A DNA stretch of 31,651 nucleotides. Source: an uncultured bacterium (GTDB lineage: Bacteria > Hydrothermota > UBA3072). This document shows, one piece after another, positions 2,080 through 17,423 of this stretch. Positions within the stretch are counted from its first letter, which is position 1. The number at the start of each line of letters is the position of its first letter. The notes under the pieces are model-generated. The model searched no databases and was not told the DNA's origin. It saw only the letters and a list, made by a program, of their open reading frames with translations. The stretch is taken from NCBI GenBank assembly GCA_964422805.1, contig CAYRCN010000001.1:1-31651 (forward strand), read 5' to 3'. Made by a program: the position numbers and the translations under genes.

Positions 2080-3300
2080 CTAAAGCTTCCCTTCTTCTTC
2101 GAGCTTTTTTAGCCCTCGTATCGTTAATTGCAAGCCAAAGAGATTAATAAATCCCTCTGCGTCTTTCTGATTGTAAATCTGATCTTCTCCGAACGTAGCG
2201 AAGTCCTCTCTGTACGTAGAAAACTTTGACTTTCGACCTAAAGTAATTATGTTACCTTTATAAAGCTTTAACCGCACAACTCCGCTCACTTTTTCCTGAG
2301 TTTTATCTATAAAAGCATCTAAGGCTTCCTTTAATTCAGAAAACCATAAGCCGTAGTAAACTAACCGTGAATAAAGGTTCGCAACGTCCATTTTATGATG
2401 GAGGGTATTTGCATCAAGTATTATGCTTTCTAATTGTTTATGAGCCTCATAAAGTATAGTCCCTCCGGGAGTTTCATAAACGCCGCGGGATTTAATTCCC
2501 ACAAGACGGTTTTCAACCATGTCAACCATACCGACACCGTGTTTTTTGCCTAATTTGTTTAGTTCGGTAAGCAAACCTACCGGAGATAATTTTTCGCCGT
2601 TGACCGCTACCGGAATTCCTTGCTCAAATTTTATTTCTACGGTTTCGGATTCGTCGGGAGCATCCTCTGGTGATTTGGTAAACCCATAAGCATTCTTGGG
2701 GAATTCATTCCACGGGTCTTCCAGGATTCCTCCCTCTGTACTTCTATGCCATAGATTGGTATCGTTGCTGTAAATTTTTTCCTTTGTAATCGTCGTAGTT
2801 AGTCCGTGCTTCTTCGCATAATCTATTTCGTCTTCTCTGGACTTCAAATCCCACTCTCTCCATGGAGCAATTATCTTTAGTTTGGGATTTAAAGCCTTAT
2901 ACGTTAATTCGAAACGTACCTGGTCGTTGCCTTTCCCGGTACATCCGTGGGCAACCGCGTCTGCTCCCTCTTTTTCTGCTATTTTGACCTGTTCTTTTGC
3001 CGCTATTGGACGCGCAAAAGAGGTTCCCAACAGATAAGTTCCTTCATATATTGCCCCGGCTTTTAGAACAGGGAAAACATAATCCGTGATAAATTCTTCT
3101 TTTAAGTCCACCACATAAGCTTTATCGGCTCCCGAAGAAATAGCTTTCTCTTCAAGCCCTTCTAATTCGTCTTCTTGACCAAGGTCCGCGGTGAACGTAA
3201 TTACCTTGCAATTGTAGTTCTCCTTAAGCCAGTGTAGGATTACGGTTGTGTCCAGCCCTCCAGAGTATGCAAGAACTACTTTTTTTACTTCTTTTTTCAT
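2080..3300 (-). CDS. argG: Argininosuccinate synthase
   Basis: 406 aa; [43 protein letters not shown]; AGGAGG SD. Confidence 0.97.
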
Positions 3301-3330
3301 TTTACCCTCCTAAATAATCGGCAGTGTTTT

Positions 3331-3358
3331 ATAATACCTTATTTTTTTTAATTGTCAA
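3331..3358 (-). promoter_or_regulatory. Sigma70-type promoter for argGHR (TTGACA-16-TATTAT)
   Basis: Minus-strand TTGACA at 3358-3353 and TATTAT at 3336-3331. Confidence 0.65.
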
Positions 3359-3377
3359 GACGGAGTTTTCATTTTTT

Positions 3378-3395
3378 TATGAAAATTTATTCATT
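3378..3395. promoter_or_regulatory. ARG box (ArgR operator)
   Basis: TATGAAAATTTATTCATT has 1 mismatch to WNTGAATWWWWATTCANW and lies in the argG/MFS divergent region. Confidence 0.7.
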
Positions 3396-3475
3396 TGTAT
3401 TTTTTTCGCATTGACTTTTTTCTCTTTAACATTTTAATATAAAAGGATATAGGGGGTATTTATTTTGTAGGGCTT

Positions 3476-3495
3476 TTATGCAAAATTTTGCATAA
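3476..3495. promoter_or_regulatory. Perfect 20-bp palindrome, ARG-box-like (TTATGCAAAATTTTGCATAA)
   Basis: The 14-bp core TGCAA-AATT-TTGCA has ArgR/AhrC operator geometry; 77 nt upstream of the MFS start. Confidence 0.6.
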
Positions 3496-3571
3496 TTTCT
3501 TATATAAAAGGATAGGGTTAATCCTTGACTTTTTACGCATAAAATATAAGTATCTCTTTGGGAAAGAATTT

Positions 3572-4744
3572 ATGAGGCTATTTAAAGATATTCCCGGGAA
3601 CGTAAAAGCGCTGGGTTTTGTAAGCCTGTTTAACGATGCGGCAAGCGAAATGATTTATCCTCTATTGCCTATTTTTCTTACTTCTATTCTGGGGGTTGGC
3701 GCAGGAGCTTTGGGTATTATTGAAGGTATAGCGGAATCAACTGCTAGTCTTCTTAAGTTGTTTTCCGGGTGGTTTTCGGATAAGGTAAGGAAGAGAAAGG
3801 CTCTTATTTTAATTGGCTATTCACTCGCTGCGCTCGGAAGACCTATGATTGCTTTAAGCAGATACTGGTGGCATGTTGCGGTTATAAGGTTCGTAGATCG
3901 TTTGGGTAAAGGTGTGAGGACTTCTCCCAGGGATGCTCTTATTTCGCTGTCTACTCCTGAAGAGATAAAAGGAAAAGCTTTTAGTTTGCATAGAGCGATG
4001 GATCATGCTGGGGCAATAATAGGTCCGCTTTGCGCTATAATCCTCCTGAAATTTGGGATGAGTCTTAAGAGCTTGTTTGCCTGGGCTTTACTCCCCGGAA
4101 TTATAACTGTCTTTATTGTGGTTTTCTTTGTAAGAGAAAAGAAAATCGAAGCAAAAGCAAAGAGTGTAGATTTCAAGTTTTCTATACTCTCAAGAAATTT
4201 TAAAGCGTATCTCCTCGTGCTTATCTTTTTTACTCTTGGTAATTCATCCGATGCGTTCCTAATTTTGAAAGCGAAGGATGCCGGCGTTACAATTTTTCTT
4301 ATTCCGCTTCTCTGGATTGTTCTTCATTTTGTGAAGATGGCGACTTCGATTCCCGGAGGAGAGTGGTCAGATAAGGTTGGAAGACGAAAAGTGATAGTTA
4401 GCGGGTGGATCGTTTACGCGCTTATTTATCTTGGTTTTGGTTTCTCTTCCCGGATATTTCATATATGGATCTTATTTGCTCTTTACGGGATATACTTTGG
4501 GCTTACAGAGGGCGTGGAGAAAGCGTTTGTGAGCGATCTTGTGAGTAAGAAATTTCAGGGTACCGCTTTCGGCTTCTACCATCTGGCAGTTGGGGTCGCC
4601 GCATTTCCTTCAAGTGTAATTTTTGGTTTTATATGGCAAAAATTTGGTTCACTAGTGGCTTTTACGTATGGCTCAGCTCTTGCGGGTTTAGCTTCAATCT
4701 TGCTTTTTTCTTTGGTGAAGGAAAAGAAAAGGCAATTTCAATAG
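3572..4744 (+). CDS. MFS transporter (about 390 aa, about 12 TM)
   Basis: MFS motif A-like GWFSDKVRKRK and GEWSDKVGRRK; DRLGKGVRTSPRDALI. ATG 3572 is preferred over the ORF-track start 3488, which runs through the regulatory region. Confidence 0.9.
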   Translation: MRLFKDIPGNVKALGFVSLFNDAASEMIYPLLPIFLTSILGVGAGALGIIEGIAESTASLLKLFSGWFSDKVRKRKALILIGYSLAALGRPMIALSRYWWHVAVIRFVDRLGKGVRTSPRDALISLSTPEEIKGKAFSLHRAMDHAGAIIGPLCAIILLKFGMSLKSLFAWALLPGIITVFIVVFFVREKKIEAKAKSVDFKFSILSRNFKAYLLVLIFFTLGNSSDAFLILKAKDAGVTIFLIPLLWIVLHFVKMATSIPGGEWSDKVGRRKVIVSGWIVYALIYLGFGFSSRIFHIWILFALYGIYFGLTEGVEKAFVSDLVSKKFQGTAFGFYHLAVGVAAFPSSVIFGFIWQKFGSLVAFTYGSALAGLASILLFSLVKEKKRQFQ

Positions 4745-4794
4745 AAACAACTTCTTTTCTGTAAAACACTAAGCAGCTTTTTCAACACAGGGAC

Positions 4795-4822
4795 TTGACA
4801 AAATTAATCTGTTTGCAATACT
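4795..4822 (+). promoter_or_regulatory. Sigma70-type promoter for gcvT-H-PA (TTGACA-16-AATACT, preceded by TG)
   Basis: TTGACA at 4795-4800 and TGcAATACT at 4814-4822; the gcvT ATG is about 20 nt downstream of the -10. Confidence 0.55.
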
Positions 4823-4842
4823 AAATTTATTTATTAAATAAA

Positions 4843-5964
4843 ATGAAAGAAATAAAAACTCCTTTATACAGCAAACACCTCGAATTAAGTGCCTCTATGG
4901 TAAGCTTTGCCGATTACAGAATGCCGATGCAATATTCCTCTATATTTAATGAAGCAAAAGCCGTACGAAATTCTGCGGGTTTATTTGATGTGTCACATAT
5001 GGGAGAAATCGAGGTTACAGGGAGTGATGCAACAGAATTTATCAACAGCCTTGTAACATATGATATATCTTCGCTCAAGGACTTTCAGGCAAAATATACC
5101 GTGATGTTAAATGAAAAAGGGGGAATAATAGATGACATCCTGGTGTATAATCTTCCGGGGAGGTATTTTATAGTAGTTAATGCGTCAAACCGGGAAAAAG
5201 ATTTTAACTGGATCAGCGGGCACAAAAGCGGTAATGTAGAGGTACAAGATGTTAGCAAAGAAATTTTCCAGATTGCGTTACAGGGGCCGTTATCAGAAAA
5301 AATTATAAAGAGAGTCGTAAAATCCAGTCCTTCAGATTTAGAGTTTTACCATGCTAAAGAAGAAAAAATAGAGAATGGAAAAGTTTTACTTTCAAGAACA
5401 GGATATACGGGCGAGGATGGTTTCGAAATTTACGGAGAAAGCAGTGAAGCAGAAAAAATATGGGATAGAATCATGAAAGAGGGGAATCCATATGGCCTTT
5501 CTCCCTGTGGTTTAGGTGCGAGGGATTTACTTAGGCTGGAAATGGGATACTGCCTATACGGTAACGATATAACAGCGGAGACGACTCCTCTGGAAGCGAG
5601 CCTCTCTTGGGTTGTCTCTTTAGATAAGGAAAATTTTATAGGTAAAGAGGTTTTATTGAAACAAAAAAAAGAAGGAATAAAAAGGAAACTTGTTGGGATT
5701 TTGGTACCGGGCAAAAGAATTCCCAGGCATGGCTATAAAATATTGACAAAAGGAGAAAAGATCGGCACAATTACGAGCGGTAATTACTCCCCGAACGTTG
5801 GCTCTTCCATTGCAATGGGTTATATAAGTAAGCCGTATGATAAAGAGGGAACAAAGGTAGAAATTGAAATAAGGAATACGTTTACAGAGGGAGAAACTAT
5901 TAAGCTTCCGTTCTGGAAACGCGGAACAATCAAGAAGAAGAGTGTCGAAAAGAAAGACGACTGA
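4843..5964 (+). CDS. gcvT: Glycine cleavage system aminomethyltransferase T
   Basis: 373 aa; GLFDVSHMGEI, SRTGYTGEDGFEI, GLGARDLLRLEMG. Confidence 0.96.
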   Translation: MKEIKTPLYSKHLELSASMVSFADYRMPMQYSSIFNEAKAVRNSAGLFDVSHMGEIEVTGSDATEFINSLVTYDISSLKDFQAKYTVMLNEKGGIIDDILVYNLPGRYFIVVNASNREKDFNWISGHKSGNVEVQDVSKEIFQIALQGPLSEKIIKRVVKSSPSDLEFYHAKEEKIENGKVLLSRTGYTGEDGFEIYGESSEAEKIWDRIMKEGNPYGLSPCGLGARDLLRLEMGYCLYGNDITAETTPLEASLSWVVSLDKENFIGKEVLLKQKKEGIKRKLVGILVPGKRIPRHGYKILTKGEKIGTITSGNYSPNVGSSIAMGYISKPYDKEGTKVEIEIRNTFTEGETIKLPFWKRGTIKKKSVEKKDD

Positions 5965-5996: not shown

Positions 5997-6386
5997 ATGG
6001 AAATAAAAATACCGAAAGATCTTTTGTATACTGAAGATCACGAGTGGGCAAGAAAAGAAAACGGTGAAATTACCGAAGGCATAACGGATTTTGCGCAATC
6101 TGAACTTCAGGATATCGTCTTTATAGAATTGCCGGAAGTAGGTCAAGAAGTAGTCCAGGGAGATTCGATTGCTACAATTGAAGCCGTAAAAACGGTAACC
6201 GATCTTTACGCAGCTGTTTCCGGAGAAATTGTTAAGGTTAACAAAGAGCTGGAAAAGAAGCCGGAATTAATAAATAAGGATCCCTATGATACTGGTTGGA
6301 TAGTAAAAATAAAAGTATCTGACCCAGCCGAATTAGAAACCTTGCTTGCGCCTTCCGAATATAAAAAAGTAATTCAAGAAGAGTGA
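5997..6386 (+). CDS. gcvH: Glycine cleavage system H protein
   Basis: 129 aa; YTEDHEW, GITDFAQSELQDIVFIELP, lipoyl-Lys motif IEAVKTV, INKDPYDTGWI. Confidence 0.96.
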   Translation: MEIKIPKDLLYTEDHEWARKENGEITEGITDFAQSELQDIVFIELPEVGQEVVQGDSIATIEAVKTVTDLYAAVSGEIVKVNKELEKKPELINKDPYDTGWIVKIKVSDPAELETLLAPSEYKKVIQEE

Positions 6387-8242: not shown

Positions 8243-9301
8243 ATGTTTCGCAAGAAAAAATTTATAATTTTATCTTCGTCCATTGTGTTGGTTATATTTC
8301 TTTTGTTCGCTTTCAGCCGCGGGAATGGAAAAAATGAGCAAAATCCTGCTGTAAAAGTAACAAAAGGAAATATCAGGGATGTGGCGGTAGCGCTCGGCAC
8401 TATTGAGGTTAAGTATGAGACGAGCGTGAAATCTACTTTTTCGGGAGTAATAAAAAAAGTGTTTGTCGAAATCGGAGATGTGGTGAAGAAAGGCGATCCT
8501 ATTTTTGAAATAGACCCTGCCCCCACTCCCTTTGAGCTCGCTTCCGTTAGAAAAGAAGTCAAGGTGGGGGAAGTTCGGCTGGAAAACGCGAAAAAGGACA
8601 TCGAGAGGAAAAAGGCTCTTTTCGAAAAAGGTTTGATATCGGATAAGGAATACGAGAATATGCAGCAAGAACTCCAGGAAGAGCAGTCAATTTATGATCT
8701 GGCAAAACAGAGGTTGGATTTAATGGAAAAAGGTAAGGCGAGAGTCGGAGGGACTGCTCTCGACGCTATAATTCGTTCCCCCGTATCCGGAACAATTCTT
8801 TCGAGAGAAGTCAGTATCGGGGATCCCGTCGTGCCGCTTACTTCTTATCAGCCGGGTACAGAACTTATGAGAATTGCAAGACTCCAAGATCTATTATTTA
8901 AAGGAGTTGTTGATGAAATCGATGTCGGAAGACTGGAAGAGGGAATGAAGGCAAAGATAACAGTAGGTGCTATCCCTGATGAAGAAGTTTATGGGATAAT
9001 AGATATTATCGCTCCAAAAGCCCGGAATAAGGAAGGAGCAACAGTCTTTGATCTTGAGATAATAGTTACTGAAAAGGGGAACAAGCCCCTGCGGGTTGGG
9101 TATTCTGCAACCGCTGATATTATTATAGATGAACGAACAGATGTACTTGTAATTCCTGAGGGTGCGGTAAAATTTGAAGAGGGAAAAACATTTGTTTATC
9201 TTGCAAACGGGGAAAAGAGAGAAGTCGAAATCGGATTATCTGACGGATTAAATATAGAAGTTGTTACCGGATTAAAAGAAGGAGATGAAATTAAAAGATG
9301 A
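8243..9301 (+). CDS. Efflux periplasmic adaptor (MacA/HlyD-family membrane fusion protein)
   Basis: 352 aa; N-terminal TM, lipoyl half-motifs (VEIGDVVKKGDPIFEI; IRSPVSGTILSREVSIGD), helical hairpin; AAGGAGG SD. Confidence 0.92.
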   Translation: MFRKKKFIILSSSIVLVIFLLFAFSRGNGKNEQNPAVKVTKGNIRDVAVALGTIEVKYETSVKSTFSGVIKKVFVEIGDVVKKGDPIFEIDPAPTPFELASVRKEVKVGEVRLENAKKDIERKKALFEKGLISDKEYENMQQELQEEQSIYDLAKQRLDLMEKGKARVGGTALDAIIRSPVSGTILSREVSIGDPVVPLTSYQPGTELMRIARLQDLLFKGVVDEIDVGRLEEGMKAKITVGAIPDEEVYGIIDIIAPKARNKEGATVFDLEIIVTEKGNKPLRVGYSATADIIIDERTDVLVIPEGAVKFEEGKTFVYLANGEKREVEIGLSDGLNIEVVTGLKEGDEIKR

Positions 9302-10533
9302 GAAGGGTAATAACTCAATTGGTTCAGGATTTTAGAGCCTACAAGATGAGGTTCCTGCTGGTAATATTCGGCGTCTCATGGGGAACTACCGCCATTATTC
9401 TTAACATGGCTTTCGGGGTCGGAGTCATGCATCAGGTAAAAAAAGGCCTGAGGGGACTGGGAGAACATATAGGAATACTCTGGCCCGGACAAACAAGTAT
9501 CCCATATAAGGGCCTCGGTATAGGCAGAAATATTAGATTTGTTCCGGAAGATGCGGAACTCTTAAAAGAAAGAATTGATGTCATTGAACTAGCCTCTCCA
9601 GAGTATATTCACTGGGGACAGCCGATAAAGTACGGAGAACTGCTCCGACAGGCAAAAGTCTGCGGAGTAAATCCTTCATATGGAATAATGAGGTCTATAG
9701 AAGCCGGGAAAGGGAGATTTCTTAATAAGCTGGATATTGAAAAGAGAAGAAGAGTTATTTTTCTGGGAAACGAAGAAAAAGAAAAAATATTCGGGCAAGA
9801 AGACGCTGTTGGCAAAAGAGTCCTTTTAAACGGCATCCCTTTTACGGTTATCGGCGTAATGAAGAAAAAAATACAGACAAATTCTTACTCCGGAAGCGAT
9901 CAGAATACAGTCTTTATTCCCTACTCGACATTTAAAACAATGTACGGCTGGCTGTACATAAATAATATGGTATATAAACCCATCTCTGCAGGTCTGTCAA
10001 AAGAAGCACAGAAAGAGATTAGCAGGGTTCTTGGAGAAAAATACAAATTCGACCCGGAAGATAAAGAAGCTCTCGGAACATGGGATGTGGCAGAGCAAGA
10101 ACAATTAATGAATAAAATGACCAAGGGGATTGAATTTTTTCTATCTATGGTTGGCGCTATGACTTTGCTTATTGCCGGAGCGGCTATTGCAAATATTATG
10201 TATTTCATAGTGGATGAGAGAACGAGAGAAATAGGAATTAAACGCTCCGTAGGAGCAAAAAAAAGCGATATCCTTCATCAATTCCTCCTGGAATCACTCT
10301 TACTTTCAACAATCGGCGGAATATCCGGACTTCTTTTTAGTTTTTCGATCGTATGGCTCTGCTCTTTTATACCTGAAACGGGCATATTTGAGTTCATGGG
10401 TAAGCCTACCATGTCCTACGAGATACCCATAATAACGGTTATCGTTCTTCTTGTCATTTCGCTTTTCTCTGGATATTTCCCCGCAAAGAAAGCGGCAAAC
10501 CTAAAACCAGTGGAGTGTTTGCGCTATGAGTAA
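9298..10533 (+). CDS. ABC transporter permease (MacB/FtsX type)
   Basis: 411 aa; TM1, periplasmic MacB-PCD region, GIANIMY-like segment and ERTREIGIKRSVGAKK, C-terminal PAKKAANLKPVECLRYE. Confidence 0.92.
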   Translation: MRRVITQLVQDFRAYKMRFLLVIFGVSWGTTAIILNMAFGVGVMHQVKKGLRGLGEHIGILWPGQTSIPYKGLGIGRNIRFVPEDAELLKERIDVIELASPEYIHWGQPIKYGELLRQAKVCGVNPSYGIMRSIEAGKGRFLNKLDIEKRRRVIFLGNEEKEKIFGQEDAVGKRVLLNGIPFTVIGVMKKKIQTNSYSGSDQNTVFIPYSTFKTMYGWLYINNMVYKPISAGLSKEAQKEISRVLGEKYKFDPEDKEALGTWDVAEQEQLMNKMTKGIEFFLSMVGAMTLLIAGAAIANIMYFIVDERTREIGIKRSVGAKKSDILHQFLLESLLLSTIGGISGLLFSFSIVWLCSFIPETGIFEFMGKPTMSYEIPIITVIVLLVISLFSGYFPAKKAANLKPVECLRYE

Positions 10534-11203
10534 GTTACTAATTGAAGCAAAAAATATAAGAAAAGAATACAAAATGGGAGAAGAAAAAGTAGAAGCCATC
10601 AAGAGTATGTCTCTTAAGGTTAAGGAGGGGGAATTTATTTCCATTATAGGACCTTCCGGTTCGGGCAAATCAACTTTACTGCATATTTTGGGGTGTCTTG
10701 ATCTACCTACCAGCGGTGAATATCTGTATAGAGGTAAGGAAATATCGACTTATTCCGACGACCAGCTTTCCGCATTCAGAAACAGAGAGATAGGGTTCGT
10801 GTTCCAGTTTTTTTATTTGCTGCCCCGCGAGAACGTTCTTGAGAATGTCAAGTTACCTTTAATCTATCGTGATACGCCCGAAGAGGATAAGAATGAAATG
10901 GCTATGAAAGCTCTGAGGAAGGTTGGTATGGACAAAAGGAAGAATCATCTTCCGACTGAACTTTCAGGAGGCGAGCGCCAGAGAGTTGCTATCGCAAGGG
11001 CGCTGGTTGGCGACCCGAATCTCATTCTTGCCGACGAACCGACGGGCAACCTGGACACAAAAACGGGAGAATCCATCATATCAATTTTTGAAGAGCTATA
11101 TAAAACCGGAAAAACAATTATAATGATAACCCATGAGAAAGAACTTGCGGAGAAAGCAGAAAAAATAGTCAAAATAAGGGACGGCGAGATCGAAGGAGGT
11201 TGA
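10526..11203 (+). CDS. ABC transporter ATP-binding protein (MacB/LolD family)
   Basis: 225 aa; Walker A GPSGSGKS, signature LSGGERQRV, ADEPTGNLD, H-loop ITHE. Confidence 0.95.
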   Translation: MSKLLIEAKNIRKEYKMGEEKVEAIKSMSLKVKEGEFISIIGPSGSGKSTLLHILGCLDLPTSGEYLYRGKEISTYSDDQLSAFRNREIGFVFQFFYLLPRENVLENVKLPLIYRDTPEEDKNEMAMKALRKVGMDKRKNHLPTELSGGERQRVAIARALVGDPNLILADEPTGNLDTKTGESIISIFEELYKTGKTIIMITHEKELAEKAEKIVKIRDGEIEGG

Positions 11204-11204
11204 T

Positions 11205-12434
11205 GTGATTTTTCTATTGTTGCTGGCATTTAATTTAACATTAGAAGATGCGATAGCAATGGGATTGAAAGAAAGCCCGATATATCTAAAAGCCAAAAAA
11301 AGCTTTATAATTGAGCAAAAAACGAATTCATTCGTCTACTCCGAACTCTTACCTGAGATAAACGGAAGTTACAGCTGGATTAAAACCCAAAGCGAAACCG
11401 AGGGAGTAACTTTTTTTGACACAACCAGCGGATACAGTCTTTCTGCCAGCTGGGAGCTGGGTCCCGGAGAATTATTTAATTCTTTCGGTACTCATTACAG
11501 AAACAGTTCAGCTTATTATTCCTTTGTTGAGGTTCAAAATAGCGTAATATACGATATTGCTTTTCAATATCTCAAAACATTGATGATGCAGAAATTACTT
11601 GAAAGCAGAAAGGCGGGAGTGGAGAGAACAGAAAAGAATTTAAACTTGATAGAAGAGAAGAAAGCGCTTGGTCTGGCTTCGAACGCTGAAGTTCTAAAAG
11701 CGAAGGTCGATTACTTCCAATCGAAGATAAATCTACTTGAAACGAAAAAACAGGCGAGGGTTTCCGCCTTGATGCTAAACAATATTTTAGGCTTAACAGC
11801 AAGGGATTCGCTGGAGCTTGAAGAACCTCAGGTTGAATTTGAAATTCCCTCAAAAGACTCGATTCAATTCATGGCAATGGGAACTGACCCTCTATATAAT
11901 AAATATAAGTCGGAATACAGTGCCGCAAAATACGATCTATTAGGAGGTGCAACGGAGGATCTCTTTTCTGTTTCGATCTTCACGGATTTCCAGCATGCAG
12001 GAGAAGAATTCCCAAGTTCCTCTGTTTTAAGGGATAATTATGATTACTCGATTGGATTATCTATAACTGTACCAATATTTACCGGTTTTTCGAGATTTAA
12101 CAAATACACAATCAACAGACTGAAAAAGGATTTAGCAGATATAAATTTGCGGGATAGAGAGAGAGAACTTACCGTTGCGGTAGAAGATGAATATTTAAGC
12201 TATCGAGAAACAGTAGAAAAACTTGATCTTGCCGAAGCAACTCTTGAATTCGCCCGCGAAAGTCATGATGCCACCAACGAGAGATACACCCTTGGAGAAG
12301 CCTCAGTGATAGAATTTCTGGAAGCAGAAGAAGATTTGCTTGAAGCAGAGTACTCAATGACACAGGCCCGGTTCGACTGGTATTTATCCGTGTATAAGAT
12401 TAAAAGATTAACAGGAATATTAACAAAAGAATAA
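11205..12434 (+). CDS. TolC-family outer membrane efflux protein
   Basis: 409 aa; LTLEDAI start of the OEP fold, repeated helical halves, ERYTLGEASVIEFLEAE; GTG start with AAGGAGGT SD. Confidence 0.88.
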   Translation: MIFLLLLAFNLTLEDAIAMGLKESPIYLKAKKSFIIEQKTNSFVYSELLPEINGSYSWIKTQSETEGVTFFDTTSGYSLSASWELGPGELFNSFGTHYRNSSAYYSFVEVQNSVIYDIAFQYLKTLMMQKLLESRKAGVERTEKNLNLIEEKKALGLASNAEVLKAKVDYFQSKINLLETKKQARVSALMLNNILGLTARDSLELEEPQVEFEIPSKDSIQFMAMGTDPLYNKYKSEYSAAKYDLLGGATEDLFSVSIFTDFQHAGEEFPSSSVLRDNYDYSIGLSITVPIFTGFSRFNKYTINRLKKDLADINLRDRERELTVAVEDEYLSYRETVEKLDLAEATLEFARESHDATNERYTLGEASVIEFLEAEEDLLEAEYSMTQARFDWYLSVYKIKRLTGILTKE

Positions 12435-12452: not shown

Positions 12453-13391
12453 ATGAAAACAGGATTAAAAAAAGAGCCTCTTATGTTTCTAGCTCTACTG
12501 CTTGCTGCGGCTCCCTTAAGTGTAAAATGCTGTCACAGATATGAAATGGAGTTTAGAAAAACTTACGAAGTAAAACCAGGAACCAAAATCACGGTATCCA
12601 ACAGTAACGGAAAAATCGAGATAGAGAAATGGGATAGAAAAGAGGTGGAAGTTTTTGCCTCTATTGGCTCAGATAAAAGTATGGAAGAATTAACTAAAGC
12701 TAAAATCGAGGTTTCCTTAGACGAAAACATGGAAATCGCGACGATTTATTCGGGGGAAGACAAAAAAGAATCGAAGAAAAAGGAGAAAGACTTTGGCGTC
12801 TGGGATTTTATCAAATGTTTAGTGAAGGGCGAATATTCGGGAAATAAAATTAACGTAGACTACGAAATCAAGGTCCCGGATTATGTTGTTGTTTCTGAGG
12901 TGAGAACTTCAAATGGGGGAATAGATTTACAGGGAACAAAAGGACCTTCAGAGTTGATCACAACTAATGGTAAAATTGAAGTTGAAAACGTCGAGGGTGA
13001 CATAGAAGCAAAAAGCACTAATGGGAAAATAAAAATTGAGAACGTAAATGGTTTCGTGTCAGGGAGAACAACAAACGGCAAAATTGAAGTAAAAAGCGAA
13101 GGAATAAAAGATTTGACAACAACAAACGGTGGCATTGAAGCGGAAATGAAGAGTATAAAAGAAAACATCAAAATCAGAACAACAAACGGCTCAATCAAAC
13201 TCGGCTTGCCTTCTTCTCTTAATGCAATTCTGGAATTAAGCACCACTAATGGCGGAATAGATTTAAACGACATTACCCTGGAGGTTACCTCAAAGCATAA
13301 GAATAAATACATTAAAGGCAAGATGGGGAAAGGCGGACCGGAAATAAATGCGAGCACCACAAACGGAGGAATAAAATTAAGAAAATTGTAA
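12453..13391 (+). CDS. DUF4097-family beta-strand repeat (adhesin-like) exported protein
   Basis: 312 aa; N-terminal signal; 7-8 (S/T)TNG(K/G/S)I repeats; ends INASTTNGGIKLRKL. Confidence 0.8.
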   Translation: MKTGLKKEPLMFLALLLAAAPLSVKCCHRYEMEFRKTYEVKPGTKITVSNSNGKIEIEKWDRKEVEVFASIGSDKSMEELTKAKIEVSLDENMEIATIYSGEDKKESKKKEKDFGVWDFIKCLVKGEYSGNKINVDYEIKVPDYVVVSEVRTSNGGIDLQGTKGPSELITTNGKIEVENVEGDIEAKSTNGKIKIENVNGFVSGRTTNGKIEVKSEGIKDLTTTNGGIEAEMKSIKENIKIRTTNGSIKLGLPSSLNAILELSTTNGGIDLNDITLEVTSKHKNKYIKGKMGKGGPEINASTTNGGIKLRKL

Positions 13392-13536
13392 AAAAGAAGA
13401 TAGGAGTCAAAAAAACTATTTAAATAGAAAAATGCAAAACGGCCAAATTGCCCTGCCTATACCTCTTTCTTTTTTCCTGTTCGACTTTTTTTAATCTAAG
13501 CGTTTGACTTCGATTCGAAAAATTTAAAAAACACCC

Positions 13537-13564
13537 TTGACAAATTCTACATTTGTAGTACAGT
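13537..13564 (+). promoter_or_regulatory. Sigma70-type promoter for the DUF5916-blaI-blaR' unit (TTGACA-16-TACAGT)
   Basis: TTGACA at 13537-13542 and TACAGT at 13559-13564; overlapped by the BlaI operator. Confidence 0.65.
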
Positions 13565-13581
13565 ATACTACAAATGTAGAA
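13545..13581. promoter_or_regulatory. Double BlaI/MecI/CopY operator: 16-bp perfect inverted repeat containing two TACA-NN-TGTA boxes
   Basis: TTCTACATTTGTAGTA-cagta-TACTACAAATGTAGAA; boxes at 13548-13557 and 13569-13578, 21 bp apart. Confidence 0.85.
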
Positions 13582-13598
13582 GAAAAACAGGAGGTAGT

Positions 13599-15872
13599 TT
13601 GAAAGATTCCATTGTGGTTAAGTGTAAGAGTTTATTTTTTGCAAAGCTTTCCCGGTTAAGAATTTTCGTTTTGTCCATGATGTTTGCTGCCTGGTTTGTA
13701 TCTGCTTCTAACGGGGAAGCCTCGAATGACGAGAAAATTCCTTGCAGGGTTCCCAGGGTCAATTCGGAAGTAAGTGTAGACGGTTATCTTGACGAAGAAG
13801 TATGGGATCAGGCAGTTAAAATTGATGCGAATGTCGAGGTTAGTCCCGGAGAGAATATTCCCGCTCCTGTCAAAACCGAAGTATATATTGCTTACGACAA
13901 CTCCAATATATATGTTGCGTTCAAAGCCCATGACCCTGACCCCTCGCAAATCAGAGCTAATTTATGTGATAGGGATAATATTTGGGATGATGACTGGGTT
14001 CTTATTCTGTTCGATACCTTCAACGACGAGAGTAGATGCTATGATTTTGGGTGCAATCCGCTGGGGATTCAGGCAGATATAATTGAAAGCACCTCGGGCG
14101 GAGGAGGTTCTTGGGATGCTATCTGGGAATCTGATGGGCGCATTACTGAAGAAGGGTATATAGTTGAGATGGCTATACCGTTCAGTTCTTTAAAATTTCC
14201 CCGCAAAGAAGGTGATCAGATATGGGGCTTTGATGCGGTGAGAAGCTATCCCCGAAACGTACGACATCATATAGGCGCATTTCCAAGAGACAGAAATAAC
14301 AATTGTTATTTCTGCCAATTGGAAAAAATGACGGGTTTTAACGATGTAATACCGGGAAGAGACATTGAACTTGTTCCTACGTTTACTTCCCTTGTTAAGC
14401 AAGAAAGAGAAAATTGGTCTTCGGGACCATTTGGTACGGAAGATTTCTATGGAATTGGCCTCACTTCGAGCTGGGGGCTCACTACCAATCTTAAGCTGAG
14501 CGCAACAATTAATCCCGATTTCTCGACCATTGAATCTGACGTAATACAAGTAGATATAAATAATCCGTTCGAACTATGGTATCCTGAAAAACGTCCGTTT
14601 TTTCTCGAAGGAGACGATTTTTTTGAAACAAGTATCGATGCAGTCCATACAAGAATTTTAGCCGATCCAAATGTTGGAGTCAAATTGATCGGGAAAGAAG
14701 GTAAAAACACGATAGGTTTTTTTTCTGCTCAGGATGCTGTAACAAACTTAGTTATCCCCTCTCTTGAAGGGTCTACTTCTGATACCATAGAGGGGAAATC
14801 TTATGGTACGGTTATTAGATACCTGCGGGACTTCGGGCAGTCATCGAATATAGGCTTACTAATAACCGACAGAGAAGGAGGGAATTATTACAATCGGATT
14901 CTGGGGCTTGATGGCATCTTACGTATCACAAAAAGTGATCACATTAGATGGCAAGTACTTGGTTCAAGGACCTTATATCCGGATGATGTTGCATCGCAAC
15001 ACGAGCAATCTACCGGTGCATTCGGAGGAAATGGCGTTTCTGGATATTATTCTCATGATAACAAAAGTTATAATTTCTTCGGAATATATGAACAAATGAG
15101 TCCGGATTTCCGCGCAGATCTTGGTTTCGAAAATCAAACGGGGTACAGATATGGCGAAGTGGGAGGAAATTACATATGGAGAGCGGGACCGGAGCACTGG
15201 TTTACATGGATAAATATTTACCTTGGCGCAGATTTGGGAAAAGATTACAGCGGCAACACAGCGCGTAAAGAACTAAAAGCCAATGTTAACTACAACGGTC
15301 CTCTTCAGTCTTACTGTGGTGTTTATGGGCAGCTCTCAAAAGACCGCTATGAGGAACAAGAATTTAAAACAAGTTATTTGAATTATTGGATTGGGGGACA
15401 ACCTGCGAAATGGTGCAGTTTCAACTTATGGAGTGTATTCGGCGACAGAATAGATTATGACAATACTCGTCCAGGGAAAGGGTTGCAGCTGGGCGTCAGC
15501 ACGACTTTTAAAATCGGATCTCGCTTGTCGGTCAGCCTCGACCATTATTATGAACATTTAGATGTAAACGAAGGGAGGCTTTACACTGCCAACAGGGAAT
15601 ATATAAAATTAATGTATCATTTCAATGAGAGAATCTTTATACGAACGATTTTTCAATTTGCCGACTATAATAAAGACCCCGACCTTTACATCGATTATGT
15701 AGAACAAGAAGAACAGGAACTTCTAAGCCAGATTCTTCTTTCATATAAAATTAATCCGCATACCGCCTTATATTTAGGATATACAGATAATTATTACGGA
15801 GATTACGATACAGATATAATACAAACCGATAGAAGTCTTTTCGCAAAGATCGGCTACGCTTGGATGTTTTAG
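13599..15872 (+). CDS. CBM9/DOMON-like sugar-binding domain plus DUF5916 outer-membrane beta-barrel protein
   Basis: 757 aa; VDGYLDEEVW, TEVYIAYD..IYVAF, NPDFSTIESD, LWYPEKRPFFLEG; amphipathic C-terminal strands ending KIGYAWMF; TTG start with AGGAGG. Family recognised by eye. Confidence 0.72.
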   Translation: MKDSIVVKCKSLFFAKLSRLRIFVLSMMFAAWFVSASNGEASNDEKIPCRVPRVNSEVSVDGYLDEEVWDQAVKIDANVEVSPGENIPAPVKTEVYIAYDNSNIYVAFKAHDPDPSQIRANLCDRDNIWDDDWVLILFDTFNDESRCYDFGCNPLGIQADIIESTSGGGGSWDAIWESDGRITEEGYIVEMAIPFSSLKFPRKEGDQIWGFDAVRSYPRNVRHHIGAFPRDRNNNCYFCQLEKMTGFNDVIPGRDIELVPTFTSLVKQERENWSSGPFGTEDFYGIGLTSSWGLTTNLKLSATINPDFSTIESDVIQVDINNPFELWYPEKRPFFLEGDDFFETSIDAVHTRILADPNVGVKLIGKEGKNTIGFFSAQDAVTNLVIPSLEGSTSDTIEGKSYGTVIRYLRDFGQSSNIGLLITDREGGNYYNRILGLDGILRITKSDHIRWQVLGSRTLYPDDVASQHEQSTGAFGGNGVSGYYSHDNKSYNFFGIYEQMSPDFRADLGFENQTGYRYGEVGGNYIWRAGPEHWFTWINIYLGADLGKDYSGNTARKELKANVNYNGPLQSYCGVYGQLSKDRYEEQEFKTSYLNYWIGGQPAKWCSFNLWSVFGDRIDYDNTRPGKGLQLGVSTTFKIGSRLSVSLDHYYEHLDVNEGRLYTANREYIKLMYHFNERIFIRTIFQFADYNKDPDLYIDYVEQEEQELLSQILLSYKINPHTALYLGYTDNYYGDYDTDIIQTDRSLFAKIGYAWMF

Positions 15873-15889
15873 TATAAAAAGGAGGGCAT

Positions 15890-16267
15890 ACGGGTTTAAC
15901 AAAAGCCGAATGGCAAATTATGAATGCTTTATGGAAAAATTACCCGGCATCTGTCAGGGATGTAATCGGGCATCTTGATGGAGATGTGGATTGGGCATAT
16001 ACGACAGTCAAGACAATGCTGGACAGGTTGGTTATAAAGGGAATACTTAAAGTGAACAAAAACCGTAACGTGAGCATCTACGAACCAATCGTTTCTCAGG
16101 AAAAAACGCGTCAGGCAGCTATAAAATCTTTTGTCAACCAGGCTTTCGACGGGGCAATAGGCACTTTAATGCATTATATCGTTGCCGAAGAAGAGCTATC
16201 AAAAAAAGAAAGAGAAGAATTGGTACGTATTCTAAAAGAGGAAGAAAAAAATGATCGAACAAATTAA
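15890..16267 (+). CDS. blaI: BlaI/MecI/CopY family repressor (probable start ACG 15890; first ATG 15920)
   Basis: LTKAEWQIMNALW, WAYTTVKTMLDRLVIKG, FVNQAFDGAIGTLMHY..EELS. The conserved N-terminal helix lies upstream of the first ATG. Confidence 0.88.
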   Translation, partial: TGLTKAEWQIMNALWKNYPASVRDVIGHLDGDVDWAYTTVKTMLDRLVIKGILKVNKNRNVSIYEPIVSQEKTRQAAIKSFVNQAFDGAIGTLMHYIVAEEELSKKEREELVRILKEEEKNDRTN

Positions 16268-16409
16268 TGCACTAAGTATAGCCTGGTGGAGCTGGATGAG
16301 TGGAATGTTTTGGCAGGTAAGCCTTCTTATAATCCTCATAAGCGGTATCGGCTTACTCCTACGCAGGTGGGTATGGCCTCAGGTTGGGTATGCTTTGTGG
16401 TTCAATTAA
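16251..16409 (+). pseudogene. 5' remnant of a BlaR1/M56-family sensor-protease
   Basis: 52 codons: MIEQINALSIAWWSWMSGMFWQVSLLIILISGIGLLLRRWVWPQVGYALWFN*. Overlaps the blaI end by 17 nt. Matches the first TM/RYALW region of M56 proteins; no HExxH. Confidence 0.75.
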
Positions 16410-16429
16410 TTTTTGTAGTGGGGAAGGGA

Positions 16430-16471
16430 TTCTGTATTCTGTCTTCTAAATTCTTAGTTCTATTTTCTATA
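16430..16471. repeat. Six TTCT-phased heptamers
   Basis: ttctgta ttctgtc ttctaaa ttcttag ttctatt ttctata; the last unit contains the aldolase stop codon. Confidence 0.85.
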
Positions 16472-17423
16472 TCAAATCAAGACACTTTTCGTAGAAATCT
16501 CTGTAGTCCGTCTTTGATGGATCTTCATTGTTGAGTTTAAGAAACTCCATTGCATCTCTGGGATGTAAATTCAATATCCCGGCTACCATATAAGGAATAT
16601 TATATCCCCATGTAATTTCTTTCTGTAGGGGCATGATATGTTTTCCTATAACTTCCAGGATTGGCCTTATATCAAATTTCGGATTTTTGAGAAAAGACAT
16701 CAAAAGCTCCAGAGGGCAGTTACCTGCGGCTCTTCCGATTCCATAAAGCGTACCATCTACGTAGTTCGCTCCCCTTATTATACCCTGTATTGTATTGGCA
16801 AAGGCGAGCTGCTGATGATTATGACAGTGTACACCTATTTCCCTGTCTTTTATGTATTTTTTGTACTTATCATAATAAAAATCTATATCTTCACTATATA
16901 GAGCCCCAAAACTGTCTACAATATATACCGCAATTGTTTTTGTTTCTTCTTGTATTTGTTGTAACGCTTCGTCCAACTCCCAATCCACTGCGTGTGAAAT
17001 TGCCATAACGTTTATTGTCGCTTCATAACCGTTGTCGACCGCAGCATTAGCAGTTTTTATTGCCGTATCGATGTCTTTGACATAAGTAGCAACTCTGATG
17101 ATATCTACGGGGCTTCCTTCTCTTGGCATTATATCGTCTAATGTGCTCTTATGTGCATCCATCATCACTGAAAGTTTAGTTTCGGTTTCGATACCATCTA
17201 CAATTTTTTTAAGGTCTTCGTCGTTGCAGAATCTCCAGGGACCGTATTCATCCGTAGAAAACATCTCCTTACTGTTTCTATAGCCAAGCTCGACAATATC
17301 TACACCCGCTTCACATACGGCTTTGTAAACAGCCCTTACAGTTTCGAACGGGAACTTTGAATTATTCATCAGCCCCCCGTCTCTTATAGTACAATCAACA
17401 ACTGTTATTTCCGGTCTATACAT
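16467..17423 (-). CDS. HMGL-like / DRE-TIM metallolyase (aldolase catalytic domain; 4-hydroxy-2-oxovalerate aldolase / pyruvate carboxyltransferase-like)
   Basis: 318 aa; DCTIRDGG, metal-binding HCHN, DGTLYGIGRAAGN; AAGGAG SD. Confidence 0.82.
   Translation of the reverse strand: MYRPEITVVDCTIRDGGLMNNSKFPFETVRAVYKAVCEAGVDIVELGYRNSKEMFSTDEYGPWRFCNDEDLKKIVDGIETETKLSVMMDAHKSTLDDIMPREGSPVDIIRVATYVKDIDTAIKTANAAVDNGYEATINVMAISHAVDWELDEALQQIQEETKTIAVYIVDSFGALYSEDIDFYYDKYKKYIKDREIGVHCHNHQQLAFANTIQGIIRGANYVDGTLYGIGRAAGNCPLELLMSFLKNPKFDIRPILEVIGKHIMPLQKEITWGYNIPYMVAGILNLHPRDAMEFLKLNNEDPSKTDYRDFYEKCLDLI

Follow-up and report, generated by a model that had tools for sequence, protein, structure and literature searches.

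A paired TACA-NN-TGTA palindrome at the promoter of a DUF5916-blaI operon in a WOR-3 bacterium: a candidate BlaI-type operator

Locus organization

The window, i.e. the whole stretch of 31,651 nucleotides of WOR-3 DNA that was analysed, contains an operon in which the gene for a secreted CBM9-like/DUF5916 protein is followed by a blaI-family repressor gene and the remnant of a blaR1 gene, and which is preceded by a promoter with a perfect palindrome (Table 1). The TTG start of the DUF5916 gene is invariant among relatives, and the N-terminus of its product is signal-peptide-like. The blaI gene begins 17 nt past the DUF5916 stop, about 2.3 kb from the palindrome, and no terminator-like site was found between the two genes in the terminator scan of the window; its placement 2.3 kb downstream in the same unit, as given in a preliminary description of this DNA, is thereby upheld. 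The housekeeping proteins encoded in the window belong to 90% clusters that carry the name candidate division WOR-3, and DNA near-identical to the window is present in salt-marsh and marsh sediment metagenomes.

Table 1. Features of the operon and of the adjoining upstream gene, with positions in the window
Feature	Position	Strand	Basis and remarks
DUF4097/LiaG-like toastrack protein gene	12453..13391	+	Pfam, NCBIfam; context, outside the operon
-35 hexamer TTGACA of the operon promoter	13537..13542	+	Consensus scan; nearly invariant across 13 related loci
Candidate double operator, perfect palindrome, 37 bp	13545..13581	.	Repeat finder; 16-nt arms, 5-nt centre
Box 1, CTACATTTGTAG	13547..13558	.	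Occupies the whole -35/-10 spacer and abuts the -10
-10 hexamer TACAGT	13559..13564	+	Consensus scan; palindrome centre, between the boxes
Box 2, CTACAAATGTAG	13568..13579	.	Begins 4 nt past the -10, over the predicted transcription start (~13570-13572)
Shine-Dalgarno GGAGG of the DUF5916 gene	13590..13594	+	Sequence; conserved in relatives
First operon gene, secreted CBM9-like + DUF5916 protein, 757 aa	13599..15872	+	Pfam PF06452 and PF19313; TTG start
blaI-family repressor gene	15890..16267	+	PF03965; ACG at the start position, first in-frame ATG at 15920 (codon 11)
blaR1 remnant, 52 codons	16251..16409	+	N-terminal transmembrane part only; deletion breakpoint near 16402

The DUF5916 family was not mentioned in the literature found by our search. 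The AlphaFold model of the protein is of low confidence overall (mean pLDDT 54), with long beta-strands at pLDDT 70-90 in the last 350 residues, and its Foldseek matches are 22-strand outer-membrane or TonB-dependent barrels at TM scores of only 0.2-0.3. The protein ends in the aromatic sequence GYAWMF; an aromatic C-terminus is typical of outer-membrane barrels. As a working guess from these models, the protein may be an outer-membrane beta-barrel with a CBM9/DOMON-like head.

The toastrack protein encoded upstream of the palindrome aligns to residues 607-868 of the intact BlaR1 of a relative (locus L108) with 34% identity (E 1e-40) and, by this alignment, is a paralogue of the extracytoplasmic sensor domain of that BlaR1; the L108 region compared with the toastrack gene is 2772-5381. 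Directly upstream of the toastrack gene, positions 8243-12434 hold a MacAB-type efflux set (membrane-fusion protein, FtsX/MacB permease, ABC ATPase and TolC-like OEP) that is syntenic in loci L106 and L107.

Palindrome and promoter

Positions 13545-13581 read TTCTACATTTGTAGTA-CAGTA-TACTACAAATGTAGAA, i.e. two arms of 16 nt each (13545-13560 and 13566-13581) that are 100% complementary, with 5 nt between them (repeat finder). Each arm holds CTACA-NN-TGTAG; the TACA-NN-TGTA dyads (TACATTTGTA at 13548-13557 and TACAAATGTA at 13569-13578) are 21 bp apart, centre to centre. The perfect 16-bp arms, the dyad in each and their 21-bp spacing had been reported in the preliminary description, and all three stand as written.

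The palindrome is exceptional in the window. No other perfect inverted repeat in the window with a loop of up to 10 nt reaches its 16 nt; in 60 first-order Markov resamplings, the longest such repeat had a median length of 9 nt and never exceeded 14 nt. Exact TACANNTGTA sites occur twice in the 31.6-kb window, both times in the palindrome (0.20 expected; 1 of 100 shuffles reached two), which agrees with the earlier remark that no other such boxes had been noticed. One further site, at 6172, appears in the window when 0-1 mismatch to CTACANNTGTAG is allowed, and window sites with up to two mismatches to the box are not above chance (13 found vs. 8.1 expected).

The consensus scan predicts a -35/-10 spacer of 16 nt. 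Most relatives, among them the closest one (L106), have TATAAT as their -10; the window departs from L106 there at two positions (TATAAT to TACAGT). Thus, the dyad core is present twice and, as judged from consensus prediction and conservation, overlaps promoter elements; the assignment of one box to the promoter spacer and of the other to the region of the transcription start, which rests on the consensus scan and on TATAAT in most relatives, holds as a prediction.

The DUF5916 gene of two relatives (L015, 6220; L108, 2321) also contains an exact TACAGATGTA within its 3' end, where it codes for D-T-D-V; the window counterpart, at about 15810, reads TACAGATATA. The match probably reflects chance within coding sequence rather than an internal operator.

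Conservation in related loci

Orthologous loci from many WOR-3 populations (72-91% DUF5916 identity) were collected by protein search and collection scans. The promoters of 12 blaI-containing loci (75-80% DUF5916 identity) were aligned, and L106 and L108 were compared in addition. Upstream of about -45 the 12 loci are unalignable, and from AAAACACCCTTGACAAATT via both boxes to GAAG they are nearly invariant. Three of their 24 box columns vary, two of which are central N positions: two columns in box 1 (one a central N) and one in box 2 (a central N). The -10 between the boxes is more variable than the boxes are. L106 and L108 have the same boxes, and the 21-bp spacing is found in every blaI-containing relative.

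Three loci (L003, L004 and L017) have lost blaI and blaR1 by deletion, such that the DUF5916 stop is followed directly by a convergent gene. There, box 2 can no longer be recognised and box 1 has become TTATATTTGCCG, while the promoter hexamers (TCGACA/TATAAT) persist; in L022, which shares 89% DNA identity with these three, the same boxes have decayed differently. Box 1 has decayed to TTATATTTGCCG or CTATATTTACAG in the blaI-less lineage. A gene for a Penicillinase_R repressor in the same locus therefore co-varies with the site, the boxes being kept in 13 distinct blaI-containing loci and decayed where blaI is missing. Across about 1 Mb of fetched loci, box pairs at 21-bp spacing (up to two mismatches) were found only at these promoters and at one more distant locus, L065. 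Such a conservation pattern is that to be expected of a site maintained by a cognate repressor, and would be hard to square with a hairpin or with a generic promoter feature.

It is most improbable, in our assessment, that the palindrome functions as a nucleic-acid hairpin (terminator of the upstream gene, attenuator, or end of a recombining or mobile element) and not as a protein operator. As RNA it would indeed form a 16-bp stem of -19.8 to -22.9 kcal/mol (z = -6). However, it is not followed by a T-run and is not called by the terminator scan, and with a predicted start at about 13571 only one arm would be transcribed from its own promoter. Moreover, each arm contains a TACA-NN-TGTA dyad of its own, for which a hairpin has no need, the element sits in one copy per locus at a fixed place relative to the -35 and -10 in all relatives, and it is lost together with blaI. 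A hairpin or terminator was rejected on the missing T-run, the promoter-fixed site and the dyads inside the arms, and a mobile or dispersed repeat on the single copy per locus, always at the same promoter.

Both blaI and the boxes are missing from 78 of 80 more distant DUF5916 loci (29-51% identity, mostly Acidobacteriota); linkage to blaI is thus not general to the DUF5916 family. In L065, an uncultured bacterium MAG (37% DUF5916 identity), TACATATGTA and TATACCTGTA (4893-4926) lie exactly 21 bp apart, about 90-110 nt upstream of the DUF5916 gene, with no blaI within 12 kb. A gammaproteobacterial MAG (L071, 1465-7229) has the gene order blaI, blaR1 (M56 with ankyrin repeats and an M23 peptidase) and DUF5916, and palindromes of another type (CTAA-N4-TTAG) upstream of blaI. 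These two loci hint that DUF5916 proteins are recurrent targets of BlaI/BlaR1-type systems.

Two further variations were observed in the promoter region of relatives. In L107 (5640-5705; 82% DUF5916 identity), whose contig ends before showing the blaI status, the operator is rearranged: TACA-N6-TGTA takes the position of box 1, and box 2 is a perfect CTACAATTGTAG. An intergenic motif that recurs as CTTTGTGTCTTGGTGACTTAGTGGCTA or variants of it lies about 60-30 nt upstream of the -35 in L004-L007, L011, L022 and L026, and is absent from the window at that site; motifs of this type also occur at loose contig ends near window positions 13528 and 16419-16463 and at several intergenic sites in relatives, and may represent a dispersed repeat.

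The repressor and its start codon

The blaI product belongs to the Penicillinase_R family in the broad sense, with the winged-helix domain at the N-terminus and the dimerisation helices at the C-terminus. It scores 110.7 bits against PF03965 when read from 15890 and 95.6 bits when read from the ATG at 15920 (cut-off 22.6), and it aligns ungapped across 114 residues to the structures of MecI (E 3e-17) and S. aureus BlaI (E 4e-13), and across 68 residues to the DNA-binding domain of B. licheniformis BlaI. The scores against the NCBIfam subfamilies of BlaI/MecI/CopY stay below the cut-offs (NF012168, 102 vs. 180; NF000243, 63 vs. 250; NF000186, 54 vs. 250; TIGR02698, 77 vs. 122); as judged by these profiles, the repressor is a distant member of the superfamily and falls in none of the named subfamilies. 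Its sequence contains no cysteine, hence no CxC metal site, and it is therefore not a metal sensor of the CopY type.

In an NMR study of B. licheniformis BlaI, helix H3 was found to contact the TACA/TGTA bases through T43, T46 and R50, and W39 and K54 were described as anchors (PMC1935004). The equivalent residues in the window repressor, with an offset of +4, are T39, T42, R46, W35 and K50; these base-contacting and anchor residues are invariant in 13 loci, as is the helix, DWAYTTVKTMLDRL.

The start codon of blaI is ATG in 11 relatives and GTG in L108, and the protein continues as G-L-T-K-A-E-W-Q-I-M in the relatives; the window has ACG (15890-15892) at this ancestral start, preceded by AGGAGGG. 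The sole canonical in-frame start in the window gene is codon 11 (15920), which has no Shine-Dalgarno sequence of its own. Helix H1 spans residues 9-20 in B. licheniformis BlaI (PMC1935004), and a BlaI initiated at Met11 would, on this alignment, be without half of it. Because of the ACG, production of the repressor in the window genome is in doubt.

An assembly error behind the ACG or behind the blaR1 stub was ruled out by contigs from independent 2025 marsh runs, which are identical to the window across 13450-14655 and show, over 15309-16550, two unrelated differences only, with both the ACG and the stub present; runs with dates of 2019 and of 2025 contain the same haplotype. L106, the closest relative at 91% protein identity, retains ATG and a TATAAT -10, so that the ACG and the two -10 changes are recent. 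Relaxed selection on the window blaI was also considered and found to have left no sign: the frame is intact over 125 codons, and the three singleton changes at otherwise invariant columns are not above the number in other lineages.

The sensor and its loss

The blaR1 stub, MIEQINALSIAWWSW...ALWFN followed by a stop codon, matches only the N-terminus of the relatives' BlaR1, and its frame enters a convergent HMGL-like gene at the 3' end of the latter; the contigs of relatives go on beyond the equivalent of 16402 into intact blaR1. No M56 protein was found elsewhere in the window. A complete BlaI-BlaR1 system with an adjacent intact Peptidase_M56 is thus missing from the window and present in L108 and L011, the only relatives with an intact BlaR1 (820-869 aa, Peptidase_M56). 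In L108, the order is operator, DUF5916, blaI, blaR1 (869 aa) and a 301-aa ORF, and BlaR1 consists of an M56 protease domain, a coiled coil and a C-terminal DUF4097/LiaX-like toastrack domain. With a coiled coil and a toastrack in this position, the intact relative has no PBP-like, beta-lactam-binding sensor domain; the toastrack domain suggests that the input is likely an envelope cue and not a beta-lactam.

The proposal of autoregulated repression of DUF5916-blaI-blaR, made in the preliminary description, can therefore be retained in one part only. The boxes over the DUF5916-blaI promoter are strongly supported by comparative footprinting, by the loss of boxes together with blaI, and by the contact residues; the blaR part is a 52-codon stub. 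The reading of a blaI-blaR pair was also incomplete in that blaI starts with ACG, and in that the sensor, where intact, is toastrack/LiaX-like and not of the beta-lactam type.

The stub of the window is one of several. Within the clade, blaR1 has been cut at at least five different breakpoints (L005-L016, L024, L026 and the window), leaving stubs or deletions; in L005, L015 and L019, exactly the M56 domain was removed in frame, and in L024 blaI is itself a stub of 15 codons. The dN/dS of blaI is 0.04-0.17 among L008, L010, L016 and L026, which have one blaR1 deletion in common, and 0.05-0.25 in other pairs. To judge from these ratios, blaI is under strong purifying selection despite the repeated loss of BlaR1, and this constraint suggests that repressor and operator are useful without the cognate protease.

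It is quite unlikely, in our view, that a paralogous BlaI-family repressor, encoded elsewhere and receiving its signal from its own BlaR1, is the main protein on the boxes, with the local blaI being redundant. Such an arrangement would accommodate the five or more separate deletions of BlaR1 with retention of blaI and boxes, and also the 21-bp double box of L065 upstream of a DUF5916 gene that has no blaI close by. Yet decay of the boxes coincides exactly with loss of the local blaI, strong purifying selection acts on this gene also in lineages without blaR1, and neither the window nor any of the clade loci that were fetched contains a paralogue.

Regulatory model

Taken together, the palindrome is very probably, on sequence evidence, the binding site of the BlaI-type repressor from the same operon, and we hold it highly likely that it is a BlaI operator by origin and design. 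The repressor would be a dimeric winged-helix protein of the BlaI/MecI/CopY family, for which the palindrome would provide paired binding sites, with one BlaI dimer on box 1 and a second on box 2. At a spacing of 21 bp, i.e. about two helical turns, the dimers would lie on the same face of the DNA; they would bracket the -10 and exclude RNA polymerase from the promoter, with BlaI binding and the transcription start placed as we infer them here. Since blaI is in the same transcript as the DUF5916 gene, the repression would amount to negative autoregulation. In the ancestral operon, as represented by L108 and L011, an M56 BlaR1 with an outward toastrack domain would presumably sense an envelope signal and inactivate BlaI by proteolysis, and the operon would then be induced; we infer both the proteolytic induction and the nature of the signal from the genes.

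In the window genome, the blaR1 stub, which leaves no cognate inducer in cis, the ACG start and the weakened -10 mean that the switch may be locked, leaky or newly defunct. That the operator still regulates there appears to us only somewhat more likely than not. A possible but doubtful reading is that it is a relic of BlaI-operator origin that regulates nothing now, BlaI not being made and BlaR1 being deleted; the promoter would be constitutive, and the two -10 down-mutations (TATAAT to TACAGT) would partly compensate. The ACG start and the stub are real and are seen only in the window lineage, the -10 is off by two positions from that of L106, a sister lineage is already without blaI and boxes, and the blaI of L024 is reduced to 15 codons, all of which is consistent with a relic. 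On the other hand, neither box has departed from its perfect sequence, the blaI frame of 125 codons remains intact with only three singleton changes, and the haplotype occurs in both the 2019 and the 2025 runs. Non-canonical start codons allow low but non-zero initiation, and weak initiation at the ACG behind the strong AGGAGGG is conceivable.

More tentatively, BlaI may act as an orphan in this WOR-3 clade, the control of DUF5916 being no longer dependent on a cognate BlaR1. BlaI could then be a signal-independent, negative-feedback governor of the operon, or it could be inactivated non-cognately, by a protease in trans or by an unknown ligand; the ACG and the weakened -10 of the window would represent a snapshot of further retuning of the circuit.

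To our knowledge, candidate division WOR-3 is a phylum without cultured representatives and without genetics. The locus provides a precise, testable pair of cis-element and repressor for WOR-3, and it ties the uncharacterised DUF5916/CBM9 family to envelope signalling of the BlaI/BlaR1 type, within the WOR-3 clade and, separately, at two loci outside it (L071 and L065). The range of loci, from intact through stub-bearing to fully deleted, represents a natural experiment on the decay of a repressor-sensor switch. The practical impact is modest, i.e. a regulatory annotation and not a new mechanism.

Comparison with known systems

The core TACANNTGTA is common to the operators of BlaI/MecI and of CopY, and is often paired (PMC1935004; PMC7253601). 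A blastn search with positions 13537-13590 against 72,556 plasmids (7.3 Gb) returned five weak matches, three of them in the staphylococcal mecR1-mecA intergenic region; with E = 0.3, the match to the mec operator is meaningful only through its location. Matches in Priestia plasmids (E 0.09) lie inside a TetR gene, and a literal search of papers for the box sequences gave unrelated matches only.

The mecR1-mecA intergenic region of S. aureus pRM27 (L109, 2490-2565) reads TTGACATAAATACTACATTTGTAATATACTACAAATGTAGTCTTATATAAGGAGG. As in the window, two TACA-NN-TGTA dyads lie in one long palindrome, in equal order and orientation: box 1 is TACATTTGTA (shared stretch CTACATTTGTA), and box 2, TACTACAAATGTAG, is identical in the mecA-proximal operator. 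A TTGACA -35 lies just upstream of box 1 in the same relative place, and a GGAGG follows downstream. The band-shift oligonucleotide OPmecA, which is bound by MecI with a sub-nanomolar dimer-operator constant (PMC1935004), is the reverse complement of box 2 of this mec region. MecI is of the same repressor fold family, with the base-contact residues conserved. In contrast, the mec boxes are 16 bp apart vs. 21 bp in the window, where the additional 5 bp contain the -10; divergent genes flank the mec operator, whereas the window operon is one-directional (target, blaI, blaR1), and its target is a CBM9/DUF5916 protein and not a PBP or beta-lactamase. The window repressor is also distant from MecI (63 bits vs. 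the NCBIfam cut-off of 250), and the host is a WOR-3 bacterium and not a Firmicute.

The bla operators of B. licheniformis and S. aureus likewise consist of paired dyads with the TACANNTGTA core that overlap promoter elements, and in the bla systems the repressor is autoregulated and induction proceeds via an M56 membrane protease (PMC1935004). Unlike in these systems, the sensor of the intact WOR-3 relative is toastrack/LiaX-like and not penicillin-binding, and BlaR1 is gone from the window; where S. aureus BlaI has N-F at its cleavage site, the aligned residues of the window repressor are H-Y.

The cop-box operators of CopY/CopR also comprise two TACANNTGTA boxes upstream of an autoregulated operon, of which one was proposed to block recognition of the -35 and the other to block the polymerase; for CopY, the 10-bp core is necessary, not sufficient (PMC7253601). 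The window repressor differs from CopY by the missing CxC metal site and by its score (77 bits vs. the TIGR02698 cut-off of 122). The extended cop consensus, RNYKACANNTGTMRNY, has a purine at position 1, whereas both window boxes start with T, and the box spacing in cop operons is mostly 24-39 bp vs. 21 bp in the window.

Descriptions of atypical BlaI/BlaR systems that have no relation to beta-lactams are already appearing, e.g. of P. aeruginosa PvmSR (bioRxiv 10.64898/2026.08.03.742534). PvmSR resembles the ancestral WOR-3 system as a BlaI/BlaR1-type pair that, in a diderm, controls genes outside beta-lactam resistance, and differs from it in phylum, target and sensor domain.

The window palindrome is hence an ordinary, very clean member of a well-known operator class, and it is the host, the target and the sensor that are unusual. 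The most unexpected features are the repeated loss of BlaR1 with BlaI kept, and the agreement with the mec operator, nearly base for base, between different phyla: the code by which staphylococcal BlaI/MecI recognise TACA-NN-TGTA would appear to reach, with hardly a base changed, into a very distant diderm lineage.
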